Source: Nitrospirota bacterium
GTDB taxonomy: Bacteria > Nitrospirota > UBA9217
Assembly: GCA_963737155.1 (NCBI GenBank)
Contig: CAVTRN010000002.1
Span: 168,287-232,286, forward strand
Length of the DNA: 64,000 nucleotides
Direction: 5' to 3'
The position numbers and the translations under genes were made by a program. Shown here piece after piece: positions 2,849 to 61,514 of the stretch. The stretch's first letter is position 1, and each line of letters starts with the position of its first letter. Below the pieces are notes generated by a model. It made no database searches, was not told the DNA's origin, and saw only the letters and a list, made by a program, of their open reading frames with translations.

Positions 2849-3264
2849 AACTGCTCCTTCCCTTGTGACCCCACTCTCGTTTAACAATGGAGACTGTTTA
2901 CAGAATACTTATGTATTCTTGGCGCCATGTAGTTCGCTGCCAACTATGCTGATGTCACATATTTATGATGTGTCTTTACATGGCCCAAAGTTAGGAGGTT
3001 ACCTACTTCAGGTCCGTATGTTCAAGTCTCAGGTGGTTTAAATATACGCGTTGGTTGACATAGGCCTGATAGCTGCTTTGGTCGAAGATGTATGGATCGC
3101 TGAAAAGGTACTCGACAGAAACGGCAATGTTGAGTTTTGAACTTGGCGAAAGAGAATAGACATAATGGTTGACAGTTGAAAAAGTGACCTGCCCCTTGTC
3201 ACCGTGGGTTATACTTGGATGCAATGGGTGTCCAAATACAGAGCCACAAACAAGGAGGCAGGTC

Positions 3265-4377
3265 ATGAAAGATTCTATCACAATCGTAGGACTCGATTCA
3301 GCAAAAAACTCCATAGCTGTAGCAACGGCCGAAATTGGCGGCAGCCAAGAGGTTCGCTACTACGGCAAAATCGGCGGCGACATGGCGTCATTGGACAAAA
3401 TGGTCAGAAAGCTTGAAAGCAAAGGCTCAGAACTGCACTTCGTCTATGAAGCCGGGCCGTGTGGTTACGAAATATACCGCCATCTAACCAAGAGAGGTTA
3501 CAAATGCACGGTTGTGGCACCATCGCTGATTCCCAAGAAAAGCGGAGATCGCGTCAAGACCGATCGTCGTGACGCGCAAAGTCTAGCCAGGCTGTATCGG
3601 GCCGGAGAACTGACTCCTGTTTACGTGCCCCAAGAGGATGATGAAGCCATGAGAGACCTGACCCGATGCCGCGAAGACGCAGTCAAGGCCCATCGCACTG
3701 CCCGGCAGAGGTTAGGCGCGATGCTCCTGCGGCATGGACACCGTTACTCTGGAGAAACCGCATGGACCCAAGCCCACATGCGCTGGTTGTCTGATATCAA
3801 GATGCCACACCCTGCACAGCAGATCACGCTGCAAGAGTACATCAACACGGTGAAGGAATGCGCAGAGCGTGTGGCCCGGCTTACGGAGCAGATTCAAACG
3901 CTTATGCCCACATGCCGAACGGCCCCTGTTGCACTCGCAATCCAATCGTTACGCGGCATCGCGGATGTAACTGCCGCGACCACCATGGCCGAGATCGGAG
4001 ACTTGGGACGTTTTGAAAATCCCAAGCAGCTCATGGGATACCTTGGATTGGTCCCTTCCGAATACTCCAGCGGCGACAGCACCAGACGGGGTGCTATCAC
4101 CAAAACCGGAAACACCCACGTCAGGCGCGCATTGATTGAAGCGGCCCAAGCCTACAGTCTGCCGGCCCGAGTGAGCCGGGTAATCCTCAAGCGGCAGGAG
4201 GGGCTGCCGAAAAATATCTGTGATATCTCCTGGAAAGCCCAGGTGCGTCTCTGCGGACGGTTCCGTAAACTCACGGCCAAAGGGAAGCCCAGGAACAAGG
4301 TGGTAACCGCCATTGCCAGGGAACTATGCGGCTTCATATGGGCAATTGCCCGGGAAGTGAATCTCCAGAGCGCATAA
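3265..4377 (+). CDS. IS110 family transposase (DEDD recombinase)
   Basis: ATG 3265 has AGGAGG upstream. The N-terminal IVGLDSAK... (RuvC-like DEDD) and C-terminal GIADVTAATTMAEIGDLGRFENPKQLMGYLGLVPSEYSSGDSTRRGAITKTGNTHVRRALIEAA (Transposase_20-like) are family hallmarks. Confidence 0.9.
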   Translation: MKDSITIVGLDSAKNSIAVATAEIGGSQEVRYYGKIGGDMASLDKMVRKLESKGSELHFVYEAGPCGYEIYRHLTKRGYKCTVVAPSLIPKKSGDRVKTDRRDAQSLARLYRAGELTPVYVPQEDDEAMRDLTRCREDAVKAHRTARQRLGAMLLRHGHRYSGETAWTQAHMRWLSDIKMPHPAQQITLQEYINTVKECAERVARLTEQIQTLMPTCRTAPVALAIQSLRGIADVTAATTMAEIGDLGRFENPKQLMGYLGLVPSEYSSGDSTRRGAITKTGNTHVRRALIEAAQAYSLPARVSRVILKRQEGLPKNICDISWKAQVRLCGRFRKLTAKGKPRNKVVTAIARELCGFIWAIAREVNLQSA

Positions 4378-15000: not shown

Positions 15001-16191
15001 AGACTGTGATGATTGCCACAACCTCCCCGAGTCTTCATCTTGCTCCAAAACTTCCAGACGTGCTCCTCTCGATTCCTTGCAGGTAGAGGGGAGGCGGTTC
15101 TGCTTGGTATGGGAGACTCGGAATATCCTTGAACTCTTCTCGCGATCGCAAGCGCCGCTGCTTCATGCGGCGAGATGCCATGAAAAGACATATAATTGTT
15201 TCTGCCGATAGCGGATGTGTAAGCAGGATTCACGGAGAGCACACCGACGCCTGCCTTATATGCTCTGCGGTCAAGCATGTTTAAAAAGGTGGAATAGGCG
15301 AACCCGGATAGCATCCGCGCATACGTTACTCCCTGTTCTTTAAGAGATGCTTTCTTCTTTTCGAAGTCAAGAGTTTCATGAGCGACGGGTTTCCCTGTTT
15401 TAATTGACCGGTCGATAATGCCGACGCAGATATCACCGTAAGTTGCCTCGGTCTGTTCCGTGGTTCTGTCTTTTATACATGCAGCATACGTTGTGTGCCA
15501 GACAAAATTGCCGAACCGGTCAGTACGATCCCAGACAAAACGATGAAGAGCTTCGGGCAGCCTTCCAGGCAGACAGCCAGTTATTGTGGGATTTATAACC
15601 GTTTTCAGAAAGGCTAAACTGCTTGTAGAAAAGTTTTTTCGTCCCAAAGCAAATCCTGATTCGGCCTTTGTCCAAATCGTATTTCAGTTTTTCGAGTTTT
15701 TGCTCCGATGAATGGAGCTTCCGTTTTTTGTTATGGACCGCAAACCGGAGAGACTTCACCCTGGGCGTTTTCTCATGTCCGGACAATTTTTCGTCTTTGC
15801 GTATGTCAATGACATTGTTCTCTTTGGTTCTAATCCATTTTCGCACAGATTTTATTTTTTGTTCGAGCTTTCCAACCCGCAGTTTCAATATCTCAACCGC
15901 GGAACTGATATTGCCGTCAAGATCGTAGCGGATAGCGTTAAACTGCCGGGCGGTAATACCATACTTAACAAGATACTCATTTTTGAATGAAATGGGTTTG
16001 TTGCCGGAACGAACGCTGTCTTTAAAGAGAGAGCGTTTGATGTGCCCGTATGAGTCGCCGATATCGTCAAGAACATGATAAAGAGACTTCTTTGTGTCCA
16101 GGTAAGACATGTCAATCAGCAAAGTTTGAGCGGTAAAAGAAAGTGTTTCACTTTTGCCGCTCTTGCCCATTTTATCCTTATTACTTGCCAT
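14820..16191 (-). pseudogene. tnpB: TnpB-like gene with internal deletion/frameshift (track ORFs 15520..16191 and 14820..15647)
   Basis: The N-terminal ORF ends ...WLSAWKAARSSSSFCLGSY*. The C-terminal ORF resumes at ...RFGNFVWHTTYAAC. Copy 2 shows that the segment carrying the RuvC-I motif (YIGVDANEKEIAVSE) is missing here. Breakpoint is at 15524/15525. Confidence 0.75.
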
Positions 16192-16747
16192 TTTCCATGG
16201 CCTCCAGAGCTTTTTTTGCTTTATTGGCCGCTGACCGGCGTCCGTAGAGCCTTGCGCAAAACGATGTCAATACTTCAATCATGTCCTGCACCAGATCGTC
16301 CTTTAGCTCGGTCTGGTCTACAATAATAAGTTGACGACCTTGAGCTCGAAGTGCCGATTCTACATACTCAGACCCAAACCGCATAAGCCGGTCACGATGC
16401 AAGGCGACAATAATACTGACGTTGGAGTCGGCAAGCAGCTTCATGAGTTTTGGCCTGTGCCCATTAAGACCAGATCCAACCTCAGACACCGCTTTTGAAA
16501 CTGACAACCCTTTGGAAGCGGCATATACGGAAAGCCGCCCGAGCTGCCCGTCCAGGTCTTTCTTTTGGTCATGACTGGATACCCGGGCATAAATAGCAAC
16601 AGAACCTTGGGCAGTTTTCTGCTCTTTTATAATGATGGTTCCGGTAGGCATCTGCTCAGCCTCAACCGGCAGCTTGCCAGCCTTCCACCATTTCCATGCC
16701 GCTTGATAGGTTATACCTTGTTGCTTTGCCCATACGCTTAGCTTCAT
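16181..16747 (-). CDS. tnpA: IS607 family serine recombinase/transposase
   Basis: 188 aa. It has an N-terminal MerR-like HTH (LSVWAKQQGITYQAAWKWWKAGKLP) and then the resolvase catalytic core VAIYARVSSHDQKKDLDGQ. Confidence 0.9.
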   Translation of the reverse strand: MKLSVWAKQQGITYQAAWKWWKAGKLPVEAEQMPTGTIIIKEQKTAQGSVAIYARVSSHDQKKDLDGQLGRLSVYAASKGLSVSKAVSEVGSGLNGHRPKLMKLLADSNVSIIVALHRDRLMRFGSEYVESALRAQGRQLIIVDQTELKDDLVQDMIEVLTSFCARLYGRRSAANKAKKALEAMENGK

Positions 16748-19854: not shown

Positions 19855-21159
19855 TTAGAACGAAAGCACCTTCCCCATAAAGAGTATCAGGCCAGTTTGT
19901 TTTTCCCGAATAAAAAATATATAGGGATGATCGATCATAAGCGTCAGTTGAGGCAGCGGCACGCTCGTCGTACTCACCGAGATGCCGGTCGCGGCTGCTG
20001 CCTCTGTCCCGGACTCGTCCACGCTGATAAAGGTTTGATGGAAGACACCGCTGATAAATAGGTCGTGGTTCCCGTCAATGCCGGAGAAGTCCGCGGTAGC
20101 CGGATTGAATGCGTCGGTCATGCCCAGAGAACTCAAAATAGGAACCATGCTTGCGGTGTAAGTAAAGGTGAATTTCGGGAGAGAAAGATCTACTTCCTGA
20201 GCGGCCAACTGACTGGTAATGTCACCCAGTATGGTCGGCGTAAGCGAGGATAGAAACGCATCGAACGTATCGGGATCCGGCATGATCATGAGCATCGAAA
20301 AATTGTTTCCGGCATAGGGGATATCGACAGCCTGACATCCATCTGCCTGCGCATAAGACACCATAAAAGTTTGGCGCATAAAGGGAACCGATGATGTGGA
20401 ACTGTTCTGATTGAAAAAGGACTGATTCGTCGTGCTCGCTTCCGAAAACGGTGACGCCCAGTTTGCCTTGAACCATAGGGCGTTCGTAAGAACGACGCGG
20501 GTATTGGGTGTTACGCCTCCCTCGGGGATCAGGTTCTGGATCCTGTTATTCGTTTGGCTTTCCACCCATGCGTTGATCGTACTTCGCGCGTCCTCCGTCG
20601 CGTTGATGAAGTCAGCGAGATAAATGCCCGCACCGTAATTTACCGCGAGGGTGTCCAAATATGCCGGGAGAATGGGAAAACCCACTTGTCCCCAGATTGC
20701 ATTGGCGTTCCTGAGCATGGGGAGTTGAGCGCCGGTTGAGGTAATGGAACCTGTGCCCTCGCTCGTGATCAATAGGTCGAGCTCATTTAGGGCCATGTTA
20801 AGGCGGTCTTGGGGAAGAGAAAACGACAGCGCCTGTTCGATCCCGCTTAAAGTATTCCCGCCAGCGCCCGGCGCTGCAAGAGCAAAGGCCTGGGTTATGC
20901 TATACGGAGAGAAAGCGGTATTGCTGTTTCCGCTCGGGTCGAGAAGGGGGAAAACCTTAAGTGCGAAATCCGTGTTGCCCGCTATGACCGCCGTGAAGTC
21001 CTCGCCAGGTACTTGCGGGTTCGTGTCACGCGCCAGGGACGACTGCGCAATCTGATATTGCGGCGGCTGCGTATTGTTTCCGGATTTACTGCACGCTATT
21101 GCGAGACCAAGCAGGCAGAAGGAAAAGAACCGTAAATTAGAGATAATTTTACTACACAT
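19855..21159 (-). CDS. serpin family protease inhibitor, lipoprotein
   Basis: Lipobox LAIAC. FSPYSITQAFALAAPGAGGNT... and the hinge/RCL region VDESGTEAAAATGISVS...IDHPYIFFIRE are classic serpin features. A TTGACA-N18-AATATA promoter lies upstream. Confidence 0.9.
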   Translation of the reverse strand: MCSKIISNLRFFSFCLLGLAIACSKSGNNTQPPQYQIAQSSLARDTNPQVPGEDFTAVIAGNTDFALKVFPLLDPSGNSNTAFSPYSITQAFALAAPGAGGNTLSGIEQALSFSLPQDRLNMALNELDLLITSEGTGSITSTGAQLPMLRNANAIWGQVGFPILPAYLDTLAVNYGAGIYLADFINATEDARSTINAWVESQTNNRIQNLIPEGGVTPNTRVVLTNALWFKANWASPFSEASTTNQSFFNQNSSTSSVPFMRQTFMVSYAQADGCQAVDIPYAGNNFSMLMIMPDPDTFDAFLSSLTPTILGDITSQLAAQEVDLSLPKFTFTYTASMVPILSSLGMTDAFNPATADFSGIDGNHDLFISGVFHQTFISVDESGTEAAAATGISVSTTSVPLPQLTLMIDHPYIFFIREKQTGLILFMGKVLSF

Positions 21160-22036: not shown

Positions 22037-22616
22037 TTAGGCCGCTTTATCCAGTTTGTAGGTTTTGAAGAATTTTCTCACGTAGTTTGCAATCACATCG
22101 CAGGCCTCTTCAAGGGCGAAATGCCCTGTAGCGAGCATATGCACTTCGATGTTCCTAAGGTCACGCATGTAGGCTTTCGCGCCCTGAGGACTGAAGATTT
22201 TGTCATTTTTCCCCCATACGACAAGTGTTGGCGGCTGGTGATTTCTGAAATAGTTATGCCATTCAGGATAACGTTTCACGTTGGAGCCGAAGTCCGACCG
22301 CAGCTCGAGCTGAATAAGTTTGTTGCCGGGCCTTTCCAGAAAATACTGATCCATATTCCAGGCATCGGGGCTAATCCTGCTCATGTCACGCACTCCGTTG
22401 CTGTATATCCACTTGGTACTCTCCATCTTGAAGGTCTTAAGCACAGGCCATTCGTTAGCTCTCGTCCTCTTTTCCCATAGTGGACTCCTGCTCTTAACCA
22501 AAGGTGTCAGCCCCTCTTCGTAGGCGTTGGTATTTTGGATGATGAGCGATTCGATCCGCTCTGGATGCTTCTCGGCAATCCTGAAGCCTACAGGCCCGCC
22601 ATAATCCTGCATATAA
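22037..22616 (-). pseudogene. alpha/beta hydrolase (haloalkane dehalogenase/epoxide hydrolase-like), C-terminal part, split by IS
   Basis: MQDYGGPVGFRIAEKHPERIESLIIQN... continues the N-terminal piece at 24200..24493 exactly (…KFSLY|MQDYGG). Confidence 0.85.
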
Positions 22617-24199
22617 GAGCCTGTTGCTCAAATGCCAGCATAGCCGTTTATGATCGCCCATATGGGATAGTGCCAGACTGCAAATGGGGTATCTCTGCGA
22701 AGCACACGGCATGAATCAGCTGTCGTTTTCGTTCTTTATACTGCCATCTGGGCCGCAATCTCTTTGCCGCTTCGCCAAAGCTTCAAGAGATTGTGCGTCG
22801 CGCAGATGAGTTTCCATTCCTGGGAGCAGGCTTCAATCCCTCGGCGCATGTAGTGCCGGATGCCGCGATTGTCTTTAATCTGGCCAAAGATCGGTTCGAC
22901 GGTCTGGCCTCGTTTCTTATAAAGCTCTCTGCCCCGCTTGGTCAGGAGCTTCCTCTCCATCCTCTGCCGGAGTGTCAGGCTTTTTGGTATCCTCCCTTGG
23001 GGCGGGGATGATGCGGCGGCCTCTTTACGTTGCTTCCAGTCTTTCTTGGTTGCGATAAGATGTTCGGGACCGTCGGGAGTGATGGCCGCAAAGTTCTTCT
23101 CACTTGCGTAGCCGGCATCGCTCAGAGATATTTCGATCTTCAGTTCTTTTTGCAGGGCGATCTCGTTTAAGTTCTCCTGGGCCTTCTGGATCATGGGATG
23201 CAGCTGGTTGATGTCGTTTTCCTGGTTCGTGACCTCGGCGGCGATGATGATCTGCTCCTTGGTGACCACGGCCTGGCTGTTGTAGCCCTGAACATATCCG
23301 CTTCGGGTTTTCATGATCCTGCTGTCCGGATCAGTCATATTGGCCTTCGCTTCCGACGATGGCGTCGGATCAGGCTCCTGAGGTTTGCGGCCCCGTTTCT
23401 TGCTGCCGGTTTCAGCCTCTTGGGCCTGTCGTTCTTCGATCTTTGACTGTTGCTCGGCTGCTGCCTCTGCAGCCTGTTCTTCCAACCGCTTTTTGCACGC
23501 GGCAAGGCGGGCTCTGCGGCTGGTTCGGTCGGCAAGTTCATCAGGAAGTTCGTCGCCCCGTTTGTTTTGGCCGTACTGCCGGTCTTCCTCGGTGTCCTTG
23601 GCCTCCGCTTCATCGAGCATCCTCTTCACTTCCTGCTCGATATGTTCGTACGTGCGGTTGGCTTCCAGGGCTGCGTTAGCCTTTATCTTGCTCCCGTCAA
23701 GGGCCACGATGCCGACTTTGACGAGCCCGGCTTCCTTGCAGAGCTTGAGCATCTGTTTGAACAGCCCCTCCAGTGCCTGGCCGTTGTCCTTCCGAAATCG
23801 GCTGATGGTGCAGTGGTCCGGAACTTGGTTGGCGGCAATTACCTTGAATCCGATGTCCCGTTCGCAAAGCTTCTCGATCTCACGGGATGATCGGATACCG
23901 AGGCTGTAGGCATATAACAGCAGGGAGACCATCATTGACGGCTCAAAAGCTGCCTGGCCTTTTCCGTCCTGACGGTATTTTCGGTAGAATGCCGTAAGAT
24001 CCATTTCTGCCACGACGTCAAGGACCATCCAAACAAGGTCCTTGGATGGCAGCCACTCCTGCAAGGTGGGCGGCATGAGATATACTTGATCTCGGTTACA
24101 GTCTTTGAAATTGTAGGCCATCCAGCGTCTCCTTATATGCGTGATGACCAATACTATACTATTCGTATATTAATGTCAAATGATTTATGCAACAGGCTC
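22617..24199 (-). mobile_element. IS1182-family insertion sequence
   Basis: Terminal inverted repeats are GAGCCTGTTGC (22617-22627) and GCAACAGGCTC (24189-24199). A 4-bp direct duplication ATAA lies at 22613-22616 and 24200-24203. Removing the element restores the hydrolase frame. Confidence 0.85.
22736..24121 (-). CDS. IS1182 family transposase
   Basis: Started at ATG 24121 (AAGGAGA SD). MAYNFKDCNRDQVYLMPPTLQEWLP...MMVSLLLYAYSLGIRSSREIEKLCERDIGFKVIAANQVPDHCTISRFRKDN is the family N-terminal signature. A charged coiled region and a DDE C-terminus follow. Confidence 0.9.
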   Translation of the reverse strand: MAYNFKDCNRDQVYLMPPTLQEWLPSKDLVWMVLDVVAEMDLTAFYRKYRQDGKGQAAFEPSMMVSLLLYAYSLGIRSSREIEKLCERDIGFKVIAANQVPDHCTISRFRKDNGQALEGLFKQMLKLCKEAGLVKVGIVALDGSKIKANAALEANRTYEHIEQEVKRMLDEAEAKDTEEDRQYGQNKRGDELPDELADRTSRRARLAACKKRLEEQAAEAAAEQQSKIEERQAQEAETGSKKRGRKPQEPDPTPSSEAKANMTDPDSRIMKTRSGYVQGYNSQAVVTKEQIIIAAEVTNQENDINQLHPMIQKAQENLNEIALQKELKIEISLSDAGYASEKNFAAITPDGPEHLIATKKDWKQRKEAAASSPPQGRIPKSLTLRQRMERKLLTKRGRELYKKRGQTVEPIFGQIKDNRGIRHYMRRGIEACSQEWKLICATHNLLKLWRSGKEIAAQMAV

Positions 24200-24493
24200 A
24201 TAAAGGGAGAATTTTCTGAGACCCAACTTCTTCAGGAATTTCCCGACTACTTCCGCCAAATGATCAAAGGTATATGTGAAAGCATCCACACGCGGGCAAG
24301 AGCTGTTTCCGAAGCCGGGATAGTCGGGCGCAATGAGATGAAAGTCGCTGGCAAGTTCCGTCATCAGATCTCTATACATGTGCGACGAAGAGGGAAAGCC
24401 GTGTAAAAGGACAATTACCGGGCTCTTGGATGGCCCAGCTTCGCGATAGAATATGTCTACATCCTCAATTTTGACCGTGTTATAGGTTGCCAT
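24200..24493 (-). pseudogene. alpha/beta hydrolase N-terminal part, split by IS
   Basis: MATYNTVKIEDVDIFYREAGPSKSPVIVLLHGFPSSSHMYRDLM...; AGGGAG SD. Confidence 0.85.
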
Positions 24494-24583
24494 AAATTCT
24501 CCCTTTCTGAAAGGGAATTTCCCCCCATGACGGTTTGCTGTTGTTCGGCCAACTGAGTGCCAAGAACGTTGCGAGTACACTGC

Positions 24584-32609: not shown

Positions 32610-33050
32610 ATGAAGATTTCAGAAGTTACTAAAAAGCTGTTATTTGCCAAAAAGCAAAAAGGTTTGAGCTTTGCGGATCTGGAAAAGATTGTTGGCCATG
32701 ATGAAGTCTGGATCGCCGCCCTTTTTTATGGCCAAGCAAGAGCCTCACAAGAAGAAGCAACGAGCATAGCAACTGCACTTGATCTTGGATCGGATATTGT
32801 CGAGGTGCTCACCGAGTTCCCCACAAAAGGATTAGGACCTGTAGTGCCTACTGACCCACTCATTTATCGCTTCTATGAAATCATGCAGGTTTATGGGATG
32901 CCTTTGAAAGCCGTGATTAACGAGAAATTCGGTGATGGGATTATGAGCGCTATTGACTTCACCTTAGATGTGGATAAAGAACACGATCCGAAAGGTGATC
33001 GGGTACGACTTATCATGTCCGGTAAATTCTTGCCTTATAAGAAGTGGTAG
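32610..33050 (+). CDS. cynS: cyanate hydratase (cyanase)
   Basis: 146 aa; ...[13 protein letters not shown]... and the C-terminal [35 protein letters not shown] are cyanase-specific. Confidence 0.95.
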
Positions 33051-47581: not shown

Positions 47582-47613
47582 GAAAACATAAATTCATTGT
47601 GCAGGAGGTGGTC

Positions 47614-48894
47614 ATGGACCTTTGGCTTCGATGGATGACGGTTGTGCGGGAGTTGCGGCCTGCCTGTTCACGCATGAGGACGTTTCTGTGGCTGTCGCTA
47701 TGCCTTGTCGGTATGTGTATTCGGCCGAATCTTGCCGGCGTCACCAGCATCGTAAGAGCCATCGGCCTTCAAGTAGTCTTGTATGACAAGCTCCTCGACT
47801 TCTTCCATTCACCGGCGCTCGATATTGACGCGCTTATCCGCCTAGGGGCCAATACCGTGGTCGGCATATGTTCTGGAGTCATGAAGAAAAACGACCGGTT
47901 GCTGCTCGTTGGAGATGGATTGAAGGCGCCAAAGTCTGGCAAAAAGGTGCCCGCTGTTAAGCTCCTCCATCAGGAATCGGATTCCAATACCAAGCCGGAG
48001 TATATCATGGGGCATGCCACGCAAGCGGTCGCAATCTTAGTCGGCGCGCTCAGGACCGTATTCGCCGTCCCTCTTAAAAGCCGTATCCATGAGGGAGTTG
48101 TCTTTTCCAACAGGAACAAGCTCACCCTGCTTGATAAGATGGTCCTGATGACCGAGGCTCTCGATCTTCCAGCGTTTTACTTTATCGCCGACTCGTATTA
48201 TTCCGCGCGGAAGGTTATAGCCGCGCTTCTTCAGAAGGGCAACCACCTCGTCTCTCAGGTGAGGATGAATGCCGTTGCCTATATGCCGGCTGGTGCGCAT
48301 GCGGGCACGAGAAGGAAAAGACGGCCAAAGGTGTATGGAAAGAAGGTAATACTGAGAACCCTTTTTGACGACCCTGCTGCCATGTGCGAGGCGGAAAGCC
48401 CGGTCTATGGAGAGAAAAAAGTTTTGTTGAAGTATCGCTGTGCTGATCTTCTGTTTAAAAGAATCGGCATCAGTGTGCGGTTCGTAGCCGTGAATCATCC
48501 AAACCGGGGACGGTGCATCCTGCTTTCCACAGACCTGTTCTTGTCACCTCTTGAGTTTATCGCCCTGTACGGTCTCCGCTTTAAAATTGAGGTCTCGTTC
48601 AAGCAGGCTGTCAGGACAATTGGCGCGTATGCCTATCACTTCTGGATGAAAAACATGACGCCGATTCGAAAATCCTCTGGCGATCAGTATCTCCATAGAA
48701 AGACCGATGCATACCGAACTGCGGTCAGAAGAAAACTCGATGCCTACCACAGGTTTATTCAGATCGGGCTTATCGCCCAAGGGCTTCTTCAATATCTTTT
48801 GATCTGTGTCCCCGAACTTGTATGGGCCAAGTTCGGCTCCTGGCTCCGCACCATTCGCCCTGGCATTCTCCCTACGGTTACGTCCCTCAACTGA
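47614..48894 (+). CDS. DDE transposase (IS4/IS701-like superfamily, family unresolved)
   Basis: Started at ATG 47614 (AGGAGG SD). ...LLLVGDGLKAPKSGKKVPAVKLLHQESDSNTKPEYIMGH...FYFIADSYY...RFKIEVSFKQAVRTIGAYAYHFW has a DDE-transposase flavour. Confidence 0.7.
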   Translation: MDLWLRWMTVVRELRPACSRMRTFLWLSLCLVGMCIRPNLAGVTSIVRAIGLQVVLYDKLLDFFHSPALDIDALIRLGANTVVGICSGVMKKNDRLLLVGDGLKAPKSGKKVPAVKLLHQESDSNTKPEYIMGHATQAVAILVGALRTVFAVPLKSRIHEGVVFSNRNKLTLLDKMVLMTEALDLPAFYFIADSYYSARKVIAALLQKGNHLVSQVRMNAVAYMPAGAHAGTRRKRRPKVYGKKVILRTLFDDPAAMCEAESPVYGEKKVLLKYRCADLLFKRIGISVRFVAVNHPNRGRCILLSTDLFLSPLEFIALYGLRFKIEVSFKQAVRTIGAYAYHFWMKNMTPIRKSSGDQYLHRKTDAYRTAVRRKLDAYHRFIQIGLIAQGLLQYLLICVPELVWAKFGSWLRTIRPGILPTVTSLN

Positions 48895-50714: not shown

Positions 50715-51098
50715 ATGAGATTGTGCCTAGGTATCGATCTACATTTAAGTAATAGTTATTCGGGTATCATCGATGAAAATGGCAAGAGAGTGTTCAAGAG
50801 GAAGCTGCCGAATGATCCGGAGAAGTTTCTGGATGCATGGATCAAACGAACGATGTATTCCCGGATCGAACCCATGAAAAAGGTAGCCCGAACGCTCCGA
50901 GATCACAAAGATCTGGTGTTGAACTGGTTTCGGGCAAAAGGGGCTGTATCCGGTGGTATGGTCGAGGGCTTAAACCTCAAAGCGAAATTGACTATGAGAA
51001 AAGCATATGGTTCTCGGAACGTAGAAACGCTACAAGTAGCTTTATATTATACACTTGGTAAGCTACTGGAACCGAAAATCTGGCACATATTCTGCTGA
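50715..51098 (+). pseudogene. chimeric ORF: IS110-family N-terminal stub fused to an ISL3-family transposase C-terminus
   Basis: Residues 1-42 (MRLCLGIDLHLSNSYSGIIDENGKRVFKRKLPNDPEKFLDAW) are IS110-like. The rest (RIEPMKKVARTLRDHKDLVLNWFRAKGAVSGGMVEGLNLKAKLTMRKAYGSRNVETLQVALYYTLGKL) is the ISL3 C-terminal signature. Junction is near 50841. Confidence 0.7.
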
Positions 51099-51302: not shown

Positions 51303-51890
51303 ATGCGATCATTCATGATCTATGTGACGGTTTTGCTCTTTGCATCCGTTCTGTATGCCGGTGAGACACAGTTTACCGTCCCCATCGATGATTCGCCGAC
51401 AACCGGTCCCGTAAGCGCGCCGGTGACCATCATCGAGTTCCTCGATTTCCAATGACCACATTGCGTGGCGGCCGGTCCGACCGTCAAAAAGATCATGGAT
51501 GTTTACAAAGGAAAAGTGAGACTCGTTATCAAAAACTATCCTTATATCTACCGTGATTATTCCTATCTTGCCGCAGAGGCATCGCTTGCGGCGCGGGATC
51601 AGGGTAAATACTGGGAGATGCATGACCTGCTGCTGAAAAGTTCGCCAAAGCTCGATCGGGACAGTCTTGTCAAGTATGCGCGGGAGCTGGGACTTGATGT
51701 GCAAAAATTCACTGAGGCCGTCGACGGTAATAAACACTTAGCAGAAATCGAGCGCGACGAGAAACTCGCAGTTGACATGGACTTGTTCAATACGCCGACG
51801 TTTTTCATCAACGGCCGCAAGGTTATAGGAGAGCGGCCTTTCACATATTTCAAGAAAATCATCGACGAGGAATTGAGCGTTCCACGGTAA
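51303..51890 (+). CDS. periplasmic DsbA-like thiol:disulfide oxidoreductase with in-frame TGA (candidate Sec) in a U-P-H-C motif
   Basis: ATG 51303 (AAGGTGA SD), signal peptide, then ...IIEFLDFQ-TGA(51453-51455)-PHC..., in frame with track ORF 51465..51890 (thioredoxin fold, ...NTPTFFINGRKV). Confidence 0.6.
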
Positions 51891-53012
51891 ATGAAAGTTT
51901 TCAGCTCAGCGTTCATTATCGGAAAAAATAATCTCAGGGAATCTCCCATGCTGCCACGATTGATCGTGTTAACAGGAATATCGCTTTTCGTTATTACGTT
52001 TAATACTGCAGTGGCCGGCAACTTCGAACCGTTCGTGTCCGTTCCTGTCCCAGAGCAGAATCCCCAAACGTCAGACAAAATCGAGCTCGGCAAGATGCTT
52101 TTTTTCGATCGGCGCCTCTCGGGAGACGGCACCATGAACTGCGCGACCTGCCATGACCCCGAAAAAGCTTTTACCGACGGTCTCGATATATCCCTCAGCT
52201 ATCCCACGACGAAAAACTGGAGAAACTCGCCGACGCTCGTTAACGTGGCCTTCCAGAAGTATCTTTTCTACGACGGCCGCGCGTTGAGCCTTGAGGACCA
52301 GGCGCTTTTCCCCATGATGTCCGCTTTCGAGATGAATCGAAATCTTGACTTTTTAGAGGAAGTAATCCGCTCGGTGCCCGAGTATGTCAACGCCTTTAAA
52401 AAGGTGTTCAATGGAGAGCCGACGCGTGAAAGGATTGCCATGGCCATAGCCTCCTTTGAGCGTACGATCATATCCGTGAATACGCCACTTGACCGTTATT
52501 TGAAAGGTGATAAAAACGCGCTTTCCGATGACGCCAAGAAAGGGCTTGTGATTTTTATGGGAAAAGGCCGGTGCGGGGAATGCCACTACGGAGTAAACCT
52601 GTGTGATGATAAATTTCATGCTCTGGGTGTGCCGGAGAACCCGGAACACCTGTCGGACCCCCAGATAGCCGTAACGCGCCGGTTTGTTGCCAAAATTAAT
52701 CGTTATGAAGAATATCGCACTCTGGCGGAGGATCTAGGCAGATACCTGGTAACGAAGGACAAGAAAGACTGGAAGGCCTTCAGGACGCCGACGCTTCGAG
52801 AGGTAGGAAAGACCGCCCCCTATATGCATAACGGAATTTTCTCGACGCTCGACGAGGTGATCGAATTCTTTGACAGAGGAGGTGGCAAGGACAACACTGT
52901 GCTTAAGCCTCTGGGGTTGACGGATAAGGAAAAAAAATATCTTAAAACATTCCTTGTCGAAGGACTGGCAGGCTTGACGGAGAAATATCATTACCCTAGG
53001 GTGCCGCAATAA
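51891..53012 (+). CDS. di-haem cytochrome c peroxidase (CCP/MauG family)
   Basis: Two CxxCH motifs (CATCHDP, CGECHYG) and FRTPTLREVGKTAPYMHNGIFSTLDEVIEFFDRGGG. ATG 51891 directly abuts the upstream TAA. ATG 51948 is an alternative start giving a cleaner signal peptide. Confidence 0.9.
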   Translation: MKVFSSAFIIGKNNLRESPMLPRLIVLTGISLFVITFNTAVAGNFEPFVSVPVPEQNPQTSDKIELGKMLFFDRRLSGDGTMNCATCHDPEKAFTDGLDISLSYPTTKNWRNSPTLVNVAFQKYLFYDGRALSLEDQALFPMMSAFEMNRNLDFLEEVIRSVPEYVNAFKKVFNGEPTRERIAMAIASFERTIISVNTPLDRYLKGDKNALSDDAKKGLVIFMGKGRCGECHYGVNLCDDKFHALGVPENPEHLSDPQIAVTRRFVAKINRYEEYRTLAEDLGRYLVTKDKKDWKAFRTPTLREVGKTAPYMHNGIFSTLDEVIEFFDRGGGKDNTVLKPLGLTDKEKKYLKTFLVEGLAGLTEKYHYPRVPQ

Positions 53013-57950: not shown

Positions 57951-59578
57951 TAGAGTCTGTATTTTAATGCAAAAAACGCATTGCGCGAGTGCGACCGAGG
58001 ACGCCGTAAGATGTGGTAATTCCCCCGCATTCGCGTTTATAGCCTCGCCGTTTGAGGTAGTTTCGTAATAACATAGCCATAATGCTAATTTTGAACGCAC
58101 TGGTGCTATAAGGGTTGATTGATGATTGAGTTTTCGTTACTGTCGGGCCGTTTGAATCTTGGTGATCAGCAGTCCAGTCATAACCCGAATATTATACGCA
58201 ATTGCACTCCAGTAAATTTTCGCGTTGAAGTGTGGTCGTGTCTTCCATTCGCAGCGAAACATATCGAACCCTCTTTTGAAATTCGATATGACAGCCTCGA
58301 TGCCGCTCCGCCACTTCTTAAGACGCGTTTCCAGGTTCAGGCTGCTCGTCAAATTCTTGAGCGATCCAACGATCTTGTTGAATACGATATTGACGACCCC
58401 TTTATTTTTCGCCAGTTGCTGGTTCAAGAGAGACGCATAGCCGCCGTCCGTCGTCATATCGCGCGGCACGATGCCATAGTTTTCCTTGATTCGATCAATC
58501 ACGCTGCCGTATTCCTGAGTGTCGCTGGGGTTGCCATCAAGAATCTTGCAGTCGATAATCAGCATGCTCGCACCTGTCGCCAGATTGATCTTATGCCCGA
58601 ACGTCGCTTCACGTTTGCCTTTTACGATGATATCGGTATGATCCTCAAAGATCGAAAACAGCTTGTCCTCGTTCGGCACTTTCTCTCCCAGGATCTCGTG
58701 GCGATGCGTCATGCTGTAAACCCTCTCCGCCTTCGGGAGAAGATTCTTGATTTCAGTCGCAAGAGCCAAAGCCGCATCGTCTGCGTACCGAAGCGAAGGC
58801 AACACAACAAGCGCGGCCTCAGCCTGATTAATGCTGGTTCGAAGCAATTTCGACTGTTTTTCAAAGGTTTCTTTGCGCTTCTCGCCCGGCTTCGTGTTGT
58901 TGATCTTGCCGAAATGCTTCTTGGCCTGCTTCTTGTACCGCCGCCCCGTGATCACTCCACCGGTCTCTTCAGCGAGTTTTACGAGCAGCCGGTCAAAGGT
59001 CTTGATGCAGTCCCACATCAGCGAATTGTTCGTCGGATAATGGACGTTTGTCTCGATTGCCGTGGAATCGGTTCGCGCCTTGCTGAAATCATCAAGTCCT
59101 TCCGCTTGGGCAATCTTGTTGATTGCGATCATCACTTGCTCAAGCGTTTCCGCTTTGATCATCGAGATGTACTTCTGCCAGACCGAGAAGGATATGGGGG
59201 ACCTGCCGTTAAGTTTGAGAAACAGCACGCAGATGCGAGAATCGTGTTGGGCGTACTCCAACTCCCGATATGTCAGCGTCTTCATCTCCTTATACAACGC
59301 GCCGCGCAGAATTTGCTCGATTGTGGGGGTGTCCTTTCTGCTAAGACTTTTTCCCGTGCTGCCCTTGAAGTCCCGTTTGACAAGCTCGTAAATTTCGGGA
59401 TGCAACGACAAAATCGTGTCGATAACCGCGAATTCCGTGTTGACTGCCCAGTGCGGATTCTCAAGCGTGAGTGTCAATTCGTTCAAAAGCTTCATCGTTT
59501 CCCCCTTGCTGATTTTGTTACGCCACTATACTTTTATCGTGCAGAATCAGCAAGTTAAATGATTAAATACAGACTCTA
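57951..59578 (-). mobile_element. IS5/ISNCY-like insertion sequence
   Basis: Terminal inverted repeats TAGAGTCTGTATTTTAAT (57951-57968) and ATTAAATACAGACTCTA (59562-59578). It carries a single transposase gene. Confidence 0.7.
58137..59495 (-). CDS. DDE transposase (IS4/IS5 superfamily, ISNCY-like)
   Basis: 452 aa; ...ARTDSTAIETNVHYPTNNSLMWDC..., ...DMTTDGGYAS..., ...IEAVISNFKRGFDMFRCEWK...YWSAIAYNI; AAGGGGGA SD. Confidence 0.85.
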   Translation of the reverse strand: MKLLNELTLTLENPHWAVNTEFAVIDTILSLHPEIYELVKRDFKGSTGKSLSRKDTPTIEQILRGALYKEMKTLTYRELEYAQHDSRICVLFLKLNGRSPISFSVWQKYISMIKAETLEQVMIAINKIAQAEGLDDFSKARTDSTAIETNVHYPTNNSLMWDCIKTFDRLLVKLAEETGGVITGRRYKKQAKKHFGKINNTKPGEKRKETFEKQSKLLRTSINQAEAALVVLPSLRYADDAALALATEIKNLLPKAERVYSMTHRHEILGEKVPNEDKLFSIFEDHTDIIVKGKREATFGHKINLATGASMLIIDCKILDGNPSDTQEYGSVIDRIKENYGIVPRDMTTDGGYASLLNQQLAKNKGVVNIVFNKIVGSLKNLTSSLNLETRLKKWRSGIEAVISNFKRGFDMFRCEWKTRPHFNAKIYWSAIAYNIRVMTGLLITKIQTARQ

Positions 59579-60016: not shown

Positions 60017-60421
60017 TTACACGATTTGCTTTCCGGCGTCCGGTCCCACGGACTGGTCGTAAACGGCTTCCACCGTGATTCGGACAACGTACTGGAGTGG
60101 CGGCAACTTCATCGGCGCTTTCTTTATTTCCTCTCTCATTTGTTCGAACAGCAATCCAGACTCCAGGATTTCTGCCGATCCTTTGATCTGGTAGCCTTTG
60201 TAAGTCGTCATGTCCGCGACAGTGACCGCGACTTTGGGATTTGCCCGGAGGTTTTCACGAGTCTTCCGTGAAAACAGATCGGCAAAAATGACATACTCGT
60301 CATCAATCACCCGAACGGAGCCTTTGGGTGTCGTGTTGGGCATGCCATCGGATGCGGCTGTCGCCACCCACGCCATTTTGCCTTTCAGGAACTCCTGAAC
60401 TTCTACTGGTATTCGTGCCAT
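60017..60421 (-). CDS. pyridoxamine 5'-phosphate oxidase-like FMN-binding split-barrel protein
   Basis: ...MAWVATAASDGMPNTTPKGSVRVIDDEYVIFADLFSRKTRENLRANPKVAVTV... is the PNPOx-like pattern. Confidence 0.8.
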   Translation of the reverse strand: MARIPVEVQEFLKGKMAWVATAASDGMPNTTPKGSVRVIDDEYVIFADLFSRKTRENLRANPKVAVTVADMTTYKGYQIKGSAEILESGLLFEQMREEIKKAPMKLPPLQYVVRITVEAVYDQSVGPDAGKQIV

Positions 60422-61043
60422 TTTTCTGTCCTTTCTTTGTGTTGTTTTTAGCTACTCGTTTCGGTTTTTCAGTAAATCTCTCGAAGGCATCCTTCTTACT
60501 GGCCAACAAGAGATTGAGCCATTCTCCTCAATTGTTAAACTCAGATTTTGATTGGCAGCATAAATTATGGAAGCTGTGAGCAGAAGTGAAACTTATCAAG
60601 AAGTTAAATTTCGCTCAACATGTAAAAATTCATACTTGAGGAGTTTCGGCCAATTACGGCCAAACATGTACTTGAGAAAAGTATATAGAATTTTGTTTGA
60701 ATGATCAATAATAATCAACAGCCTGAACGAACCTGCCGCATGGGCAGATTCAAAATGGGATAGCAAATACGAAGTGAAAGATTGGATGTTGTCTAAGCAG
60801 TCTTGGGTGTGAAATACAGGAAGTACTTGTTGCCAGGAGAATCATGTCATAATATCCATGATTCAAACAGAAGATTTCACCGTCCTAATAATTCTTAACC
60901 TCCCACATCCGCCTACTGAGATAACAAATCACTCAATATCTGGTGCTATCTCAAAAGTGCTTCCCCGAAACTCTTGCTTTAGTAATGATATAATTGTGAT
61001 CGATAAGGTATTTCACCATTCTGGCACTTTTAAGGAGGGAACT

Positions 61044-61514
61044 ATGGGAGAAGTCATTCACACATCCCGCATAAGGATAGTTCGGGAAAAGGGGCCCACT
61101 CGCAAAGCTGTGATCGAGGGATTTAACGAACCAATTTATTATGGCGTGCATGGCGGAATCAAGAAATTTTACAAAGTCGAACCCGAGGAAGAGCACGCAG
61201 CCACGCTCGACCATATTGTGGCTGCAACAGCAGGCTGAATGATGGGAACACTGGCCGCGGCGCTGGCCGGAAAGAAAATACGAACGTCCGAAGAGCTTTA
61301 CTCGGCCGATGTTGAAGGAGACATTGAGAACGTAAATGGCATTCTGAAAATCACGAAGATTAGGGTAAAGTACTATCTCAAAGTACCGGCAGGGAAATCC
61401 GCTGAAGCAAGAGCGGCATTTTCCTCATACATAGTTGGATGTCCGGCGGCGCAAAGTGTCATCGGTTGTATAGATATCAGGGACGATCTTGCAATCGAAG
61501 AAATGAAAGAGTAA
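61044..61514 (+). CDS. OsmC/Ohr-family peroxiredoxin-like protein with in-frame TGA (candidate Sec) at the peroxidatic Cys position
   Basis: ATG 61044 (AAGGAGG SD). ...LDHIVAATAG-TGA(61236-61238)-MMGTLAAALAG... runs in frame into track ORF 61239..61514, which carries the second OsmC Cys (VGCPAAQSV). Hairpin CTGGCC/GGCCGG at 61251-61270. Confidence 0.65.

Follow-up and report, generated by a model that had tools for sequence, protein, structure and literature searches.

The question raised by this locus is whether two adjacent open reading frames, 60858..61238 and 61239..61514 on the forward strand of the 64-kb stretch of DNA that we analysed (the window), encode two polypeptides or one protein whose translation continues through a stop codon. 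The two ORFs share one frame and are separated by nothing but TGA 61236-61238, which an earlier note on this DNA had pointed out and which can be seen directly in the sequence. From ATG 61044 the frame runs on the plus strand over 156 codons to TAA 61512-61514, and according to the sequence and its translation this TGA is the sole interruption. The same ATG had been proposed as the start of a 156-codon gene, together with the Shine-Dalgarno sequence AAGGAGG (61032..61038, +, read from the sequence, 5-nt spacer to ATG 61044). Full-length homologues all begin at the equivalent MGE..., so that 61044 is the true start and the upstream ATG 60858 is unused. The predicted coding sequence of an OsmC-family selenoprotein (61044..61514, +) thus comprises 156 codons including UGA65, then TAA, and is based on translation, Pfam and codon-position diversity. 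On the plus strand the peptide across UGA65 reads ...LDHIVAATAG-TGA-MMGTLAAALAG, and the product predicted around codon 65 is ...IVAATAG-U-MMGTLAAALAGK. When TGA-joined ORF pairs were made mechanically in the window, 2 of 53 resembled real proteins, namely this OsmC-like gene and a DsbA-like gene described below.

The family to which the protein belongs was established by profile searches and by a structural model. The read-through product scored 33.8 bits with the Pfam model PF02566 (OsmC), for a gathering score of 27.5, while the C-terminal 91 residues alone reached 21.6 bits, under the threshold, and the N-terminal 64 residues alone had no Pfam match. With the NCBIfam OsmC model TIGR03562 the score was 20.4 bits, below the cut-off of 85.8, and the read-through protein gave no match to the NCBIfam model of the Ohr subfamily: the protein is inside the OsmC/Ohr superfamily but in neither of these curated NCBIfam subfamilies. 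The fold was examined on an AlphaFold model of P0006, a Cys-type homologue found in nature that shares 71% identity with the window protein (pLDDT 87, pTM 0.83). All 50 PDB matches listed for this model were either OsmC/Ohr-family entries or structural-genomics depositions described as OsmC-like or as putative redox proteins, with a probability of 1.00, TM-scores of 0.41-0.63 and identities of 8-17%. As modelled through this Cys homologue, the fold is that of OsmC/Ohr and, since the matches are all of OsmC/Ohr type at such low identity, the protein is a divergent member of the superfamily. Both the Pfam score and the fold search, whose listed matches were of OsmC/Ohr type, agree with the initial description of an OsmC-size, OsmC-like read-through protein.

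The position of the TGA within this fold is that of the catalytic residue. In HMMER alignments, the residue opposite the TGA column was the Cys of AAHAAC-FSMAL in E. coli OsmC, of AAHAGC-FSMAL in T. thermophilus OsmC and of YSAC-F in Ohr, and Cys133 (GCPAAQS) fell on the CP resolving Cys of OsmC (GCPVS) and Ohr (VCPYS). These alignments reproduced the one made by hand in the earlier note, which had paired the TGA with C59, the peroxidatic residue of E. coli OsmC, and they gave a place to the second conserved Cys that it had recognised downstream (YIVGCPAAQSV versus KAGCPVSQVL), which falls on the CP resolving Cys. The in-frame UGA (codon 65, 61236..61238, +), a predicted Sec at the peroxidatic position, aligned with the catalytic Cys of OsmC/Ohr and is TGA in 107 of 111 loci. 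In the wider family, position 65 is Cys in 44 of the 58 representatives spanning it. Alignment with Cys-type OsmC homologues, which had been suggested as a check, showed that the column holds Cys or TGA in the homologues. Judged by sequence alignment, the TGA column is a Sec/Cys pair at the catalytic position of an OsmC/Ohr-type protein. Cys133 of the C-P motif (61440..61442, +; context ...IVGCPAAQSV), the predicted resolving Cys, is conserved in 42 of the 45 representatives covering it. Two further residues are candidates for the active site. Asp56 of the LDH motif (61209..61211, +), a possible counterpart of the active-site acidic residue of Ohr/OsmC, is found in 56 of 58 spanning representatives and is invariant in the alignment of close homologues. 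Arg20 (61101..61103, +), a candidate catalytic Arg, is invariant in the close clade, and among the 58 spanning representatives 29 have R and 18 have K at this position. Profile alignments to solved structures stop short of the N-terminal region in which Arg20 and Asp56 sit. We also observed that three representatives (P0156, P0172 and P0206) carry an Arg at the catalytic column (AGR-M/L-x-G) and have a downstream part that looks degraded.

The codon found at this column in relatives was then compared with the way in which the gene is recorded. An exhaustive search of 1.84 billion representatives found 1028 relatives. Among the best 150 of these 1028, 41 stop precisely at profile position 64 and another 24 begin at position 66 or 67; going by their sequences, these part-length representatives (65 of 150) are halves made by gene callers at the UGA. 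Similarly, 98 of the best 120 database matches are C-terminal fragments of 89-94 aa that contain only the part after the TGA, and full-length matches show C or 'W' at the column, 'W' being TGA in the DNA. The relatives are present in at least 536 to 566 species-representative genomes, mostly of Syntrophales, Syntrophobacterales, Desulfobacterales and Thermodesulfovibrionales/Nitrospirota, and the nearest match to the OsmC-like protein, 87% identical, comes from a Nitrospirota MAG. Named genomes of Thermodesulfobacteriota and Nitrospirota supplied 111 distinct homologous loci, in which the codon is TGA 107 times, TGC three times and TGT once: in the close clade, Sec (TGA) forms far outnumber Cys forms. 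The Met-Met that follows the column occurs in Cys forms too. In the 107 TGA loci, codon-position diversity at third positions is 0.58 upstream of the UGA and 0.60 downstream, for 0.07-0.23 at positions 1-2. Both halves flanking the UGA are under purifying selection in the same frame, which excludes a pseudogene or a sequencing error.

The state of the public records deserves a separate remark. Under the names 'organic hydroperoxide reductase OsmC/OhrA' or 'hypothetical protein', they include hundreds of sequences of 64-117 or 89-94 residues that are halves of the selenoprotein, and the locus L001 (578-1048) is among the public-database cases of the selenoprotein being cut at the UGA or having its TGA translated as W. 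In a few representatives the column holds a G, which may be a TGA read under code 25.

A hairpin of bacterial SECIS (bSECIS) type is located directly after the UGA, at 61251..61270 (+), with its 5' arm at 61251-61257, a loop CGGCGC at 61258-61263 and its 3' arm at 61264-61270. It starts 12 nt past the TGA and is formed by 7 bp (in order C-G, U-G, G-C, G-C, C-G, C-G and G-U, the latter closing the stem) and a 6-nt loop, with 19 nt from UGA to loop and an energy of -9.7 kcal/mol. The earlier note had drawn it at the same distance as CUGGCC, an 8-nt loop and GGCCGG; its presence in the sequence stands and its structure is refined by the present description. Published criteria for bSECIS elements are a loop of 3-9 nt with a G in its first two positions, a stem of 4-16 bp, a distance of 16-37 nt from the UGA and an energy of at most -7.5 kcal/mol (PMC13188914). 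Running this SECIS model on the region, another check that had been suggested, showed that the window hairpin fits all four, the G at loop position 2 being followed by another G. We applied a strict ungapped implementation of these four criteria to several sets of sequences. Passing hairpins were obtained for 98 of 107 TGA loci, for none of the 4 Cys-codon genome loci and for none of the 8 genuine TGA stops of the window, while the null rate, taken from all UGA triplets of the window, was 67 out of 2390 (2.8%).

The conservation of this hairpin was assessed at the level of pairing and of codon choice. Over 99 distinct sequences, 98% of the cells are paired, and pairing falls to 1-53% when the partner is shifted by 1-3 columns. 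One compensatory pair was found, C-G to U-A, in 4 loci, the remaining changes being wobble-compatible; true covariation is thin and the stem is too conserved for more. Synonymous entropy is 0.2-0.8 bits at codons +4 to +11, compared with a mean of 1.77 and a minimum of 0.93 elsewhere (46 other conserved columns with four-fold or higher degeneracy), and these are the only codons where synonymous variation is suppressed. Hairpin codons are nearly fixed (CTG in 103/107, GCC in 102/107 and GCC in 88/103). As the same amino acids use all codons elsewhere in the gene, the constraint bears on the RNA and not on the protein. Folding of the single window sequence did not give an energy significantly different from that of shuffles (z = 0.24). 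No Rfam SECIS family reached its gathering threshold over the window, and the search at E <= 10 over 61150-61350 gave chance-level matches only.

Relatives with a Cys codon at this column provide a further comparison. The Cys-codon clade of Smithellaceae has a weakened stem (-4.5 versus -11.4 kcal/mol) and the stem is absent from two divergent and independent Cys forms (L151 and L152). One Cys form (L150, 1408-1869) has TGC at the catalytic codon, yet it has kept the full CUGGCCA...UGGCCGA hairpin, which is probably a fossil SECIS left by a recent Sec-to-Cys conversion; this locus demonstrates that the hairpin can persist without the UGA. Two distant TGA forms, L153 (328-798) and L154 (71-544), which read U-L-T-G-T, have a hairpin of another kind some 20 nt downstream, whose loop contains GG. 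Since it differs from the hairpin of the close clade and sits about 7 nt further downstream, the SECIS has been rebuilt within the family. On the whole, the hairpin of the window gene is conserved, constrained as RNA and fits the bSECIS model.

We next considered whether the organism decodes UGA as Sec. No selA, selB or selD was detected by Pfam among the 40 large ORFs of the window, no tRNA-Sec was detected by ARAGORN in the window, which is without any tRNA, or in the fetched flanks of relatives, and these flanks contained no sel machinery genes. Complete selABCD sets have been reported in Thermodesulfovibrio, Syntrophobacterales and Desulfobacterales genomes (PMC5389517). TGA is the ordinary stop of 8 of the 34 Pfam-supported genes of the window, which excludes genetic codes 4 and 25; the window uses the standard genetic code. 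A second predicted selenoprotein is encoded at 51303..51890 (+). Its product, a DsbA/Thioredoxin_4 protein that looks secreted, has TGA 51453-51455 as the first residue of its CxxC motif (FQ-U-PHC, UxxC), and its nearest match, 83% identical, is in a Nitrospirota MAG. The earlier note had called upon this gene as support, and the TGA is indeed kept in all 78 homologous loci, including those of cultured Desulfoprunum and Desulfopila. These loci show a conserved hairpin after the TGA (GGCGGCC-GGUCC-GACCGUC). The DsbA-like gene of the window falls outside the strict ungapped bSECIS test owing to one C-A mismatch in its stem, and relatives restore the pair. Going by its sequence and that of its homologues, the DsbA-like gene supports the same decoding trait in the organism.

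Another candidate in this region was rejected: the ORFs 51465..51890 and 51891..53012 were considered as a TGA-joined pair, but the stop between them is TAA and they belong to two genes. The second one (51891-53012, +), whose product is a di-haem cytochrome c peroxidase/MauG protein (171 bits), has its ATG directly past the TAA of the DsbA-like gene, an arrangement which suggests that the DsbA-like and MauG genes are paired in an operon.

We propose that 61044..61514 very probably encodes one 156-residue protein of the OsmC/Ohr peroxidase superfamily in which UGA65 is decoded as selenocysteine. The hairpin 61251-61270 would act as a bacterial SECIS element in the mRNA, recruiting SelB loaded with Sec-tRNA(Sec) when UGA65 occupies the A site, so that translation would go on past UGA65 in place of terminating; SelB-dependent insertion of Sec is thus what we infer for the source organism. 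By analogy with OsmC/Ohr, the selenolate of Sec65 would lie at the peroxidatic site of the long central helix and attack a hydroperoxide, the resulting selenenic acid would be resolved by Cys133 of the C-P motif to give a selenenylsulfide, and a cellular dithiol reductant would reduce the latter. Both the peroxidase chemistry and the nature of the reductant are put forward here on the basis of this analogy.

Other readings of the UGA were weighed against this one. An unlikely one is that the codon is recoded through the same hairpin as Cys, or as Sec or Cys depending on selenium supply, by a selC* tRNA(Cys) with a UCA anticodon acting together with SelB*. Mukai et al. described selC* tRNA(Cys) genes, in some cases with selB* and cysS* behind them, in Thermodesulfovibrio, Nitrospirae, Syntrophobacterales, Desulfobacterales and Smithella, and showed in E. 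coli that a tRNA of this type inserts Cys at a natural Sec-UGA codon (PMC5389517). The lineages with selC* are the very taxa that carry the OsmC-like gene, and a Cys at position 65 is functional, as seen from its frequency among the wider-family representatives. However, the UCA anticodon is found in only a subset of selC* tRNAs, SECIS-guided and SelB*-dependent insertion of Cys is undemonstrated and neither selC* nor selB* was found in the window. Moreover, 96% of the loci have kept TGA and not a Cys codon, which argues that Sec itself is selected.

The chance that the TGA is a genuine stop is smaller still. The locus would then be a pseudogene, or else a split gene with polypeptides of 64 and 91 residues and a restart at AUG-AUG. 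AUG AUG does follow the UGA directly, the gene calls of most databases show two ORFs here and other genes of the window do end in TGA. A pseudogene is excluded by the purifying selection on both halves and by the TGA itself, which 107 distinct loci of two phyla retain at the same column. As for a split gene, it would lose exactly the catalytic residue and leave the constrained downstream hairpin without a role. The Met-Met is a feature of the protein, being present in Cys forms, and in L153 and L154, the distant TGA forms, the UGA is followed by CUG or CUA, which leaves no restart codon. Codons -12 to -1 are synonymously free (1.5-1.95 bits), arguing against a conserved ribosome-binding site before the AUG. 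Least credible in our opinion is that the hairpin is a by-product of the peptide (L-A-x-x-L/M-A-G) and of GC content, with a UGA that is leaky or a TGA that is a sense codon (Trp or Gly). In its favour, single-sequence folding is no better than shuffles, and some gene callers do translate the codon as W, possibly as G. Against a sense codon stand the window genes that end in TGA; against a by-product, the synonymous choice that is nearly fixed in the hairpin codons and free in the rest of the gene, the stem changes that preserve pairing and the loss of the stem in Cys-codon relatives.

Selenocysteine at the catalytic Cys of an OsmC-type protein is already known since 2005, so that the window gene adds a member to a known kind of selenoprotein and is in this respect an ordinary finding. 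The OsmC-like selenoprotein family was described by Zhang, Fomenko and Gladyshev in 2005 in Sargasso Sea data (PMC1088965) and is still listed in reviews of 2022 and 2026, as PF02566 / COG1765 YhfA with the motif UxxT (PMC13188914); published representatives are MBR72571.1, MCS5647933.1 and AACY01145085. In common with them, the window gene belongs to PF02566, has a single Sec, shows a Sec/Cys pair in homologues and bears, directly past the UGA, a SECIS-type hairpin whose small apical loop contains a G. Several features differ. The UxxT motif of the published family is not found in the window clade, which has U-M-M-G-T (UxxxT, with Thr at +4 and not +3). The published family comes from oxic marine surface metagenomes, whereas the hosts of the window clade are anaerobic Thermodesulfobacteriota and Nitrospirota. 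The window clade is also nearer in sequence to OsmC/Ohr than to YhfA, whose structure 1ML8 had the lowest query-normalised TM-score (0.41) of the 50 matches listed and was not found by the profile search with the window family. On the basis of motif, hosts and the comparison with YhfA, and taking the published sequences by their description, the window clade may be separate from the published UxxT family. A bolder proposal, which we regard as unlikely, is that of a Sec-dominant OsmC clade apart from the marine UxxT family in which UGA would be decoded facultatively via the same hairpin, as Sec with selenium and as Cys without it. Such facultative decoding is possible because the lineages that keep the UGA (about 96% of more than 100 species-level genomes) also carry selC*/SelB*.

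Comparison with better known systems places the gene as follows. The window protein has in common with the E. coli OsmC/Ohr two-Cys peroxidases its fold, its aligned peroxidatic and C-P Cys positions and a length of about 140-160 residues; it differs from them by its 8-17% identity to solved members, by the predicted Sec in place of the peroxidatic Cys and by the N-terminal signature of its own family (HGGIKKFY, LDH). A stem-loop in the coding region directly past the UGA is common to the window gene, the E. coli fdhF-type SECIS and the bSECISearch consensus, but in sequence the window hairpin resembles neither fdhF nor any Rfam model. The DsbA-like, thioredoxin-fold UxxC selenoproteins have another fold and chemistry and are relevant only to the Sec trait.

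The genomic surroundings of the gene were examined as well. The divergent neighbour that the earlier note had reported as PNPOx-like is present at 60017..60421 (-), as a PNPOx-type protein with a Pfam score of 71.6 bits, but a link between the two genes is unsupported, as the neighbourhood is not conserved: across the 111 loci no conserved neighbourhood or partner emerged, the commonest neighbour family being present in 9 of them and PNPOx not being conserved. Scans for promoters and terminators around the gene gave nothing above shuffle expectation. The window also contains many mobile-element genes, at 3169-4377, 16181-16747, 47599-48894, 50715-51098 and 58137-59495, their kinds being an IS110-family transposase, a resolvase, DDE_5 and DDE_Tnp_1 transposases and an ISL3 fragment. 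One of these mobile-element genes is about 1.5 kb away from the OsmC-like gene, whose surroundings differ from those of its relatives. At 22037-24580 (-), an alpha/beta-hydrolase gene is apparently split by an insertion sequence, with its N-part at 24185-24580 (Abhydrolase_1 positions 1-71), its C-part at 22037-22612 (positions 77-243) and a DDE transposase at 22736-24151 between them. A bacterial serpin (19855-21159, -; Pfam Serpin 339 bits) and a cyanate lyase (32610-33050, +; 124 bits) are also encoded; both are unrelated to the selenoprotein.

These results bear first on annotation. A single 156-residue selenoprotein is the appropriate gene call, while databases contain fragments of 64 aa and 91 aa, or a W at the TGA, for hundreds of species, and no NCBIfam model covers the window clade. 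Many records could be repaired with a simple rule that combines the motif LD[HY]-x8-TGA-[ML]-x-G-T with the CUGGCC...GGCCGG hairpin. The OsmC-like selenoprotein opens no new kind of mechanism. Together, the OsmC-like and DsbA-like genes mark the source organism, probably a member of Nitrospirota, as a selenocysteine user, and the OsmC-like gene adds to its selenoproteome what is, by family, an antioxidant enzyme. With Sec forms far more numerous than Cys forms among close relatives, an unusual feature, this clade offers a convenient natural system for studying the contribution of Sec to an OsmC/Ohr-type active site.
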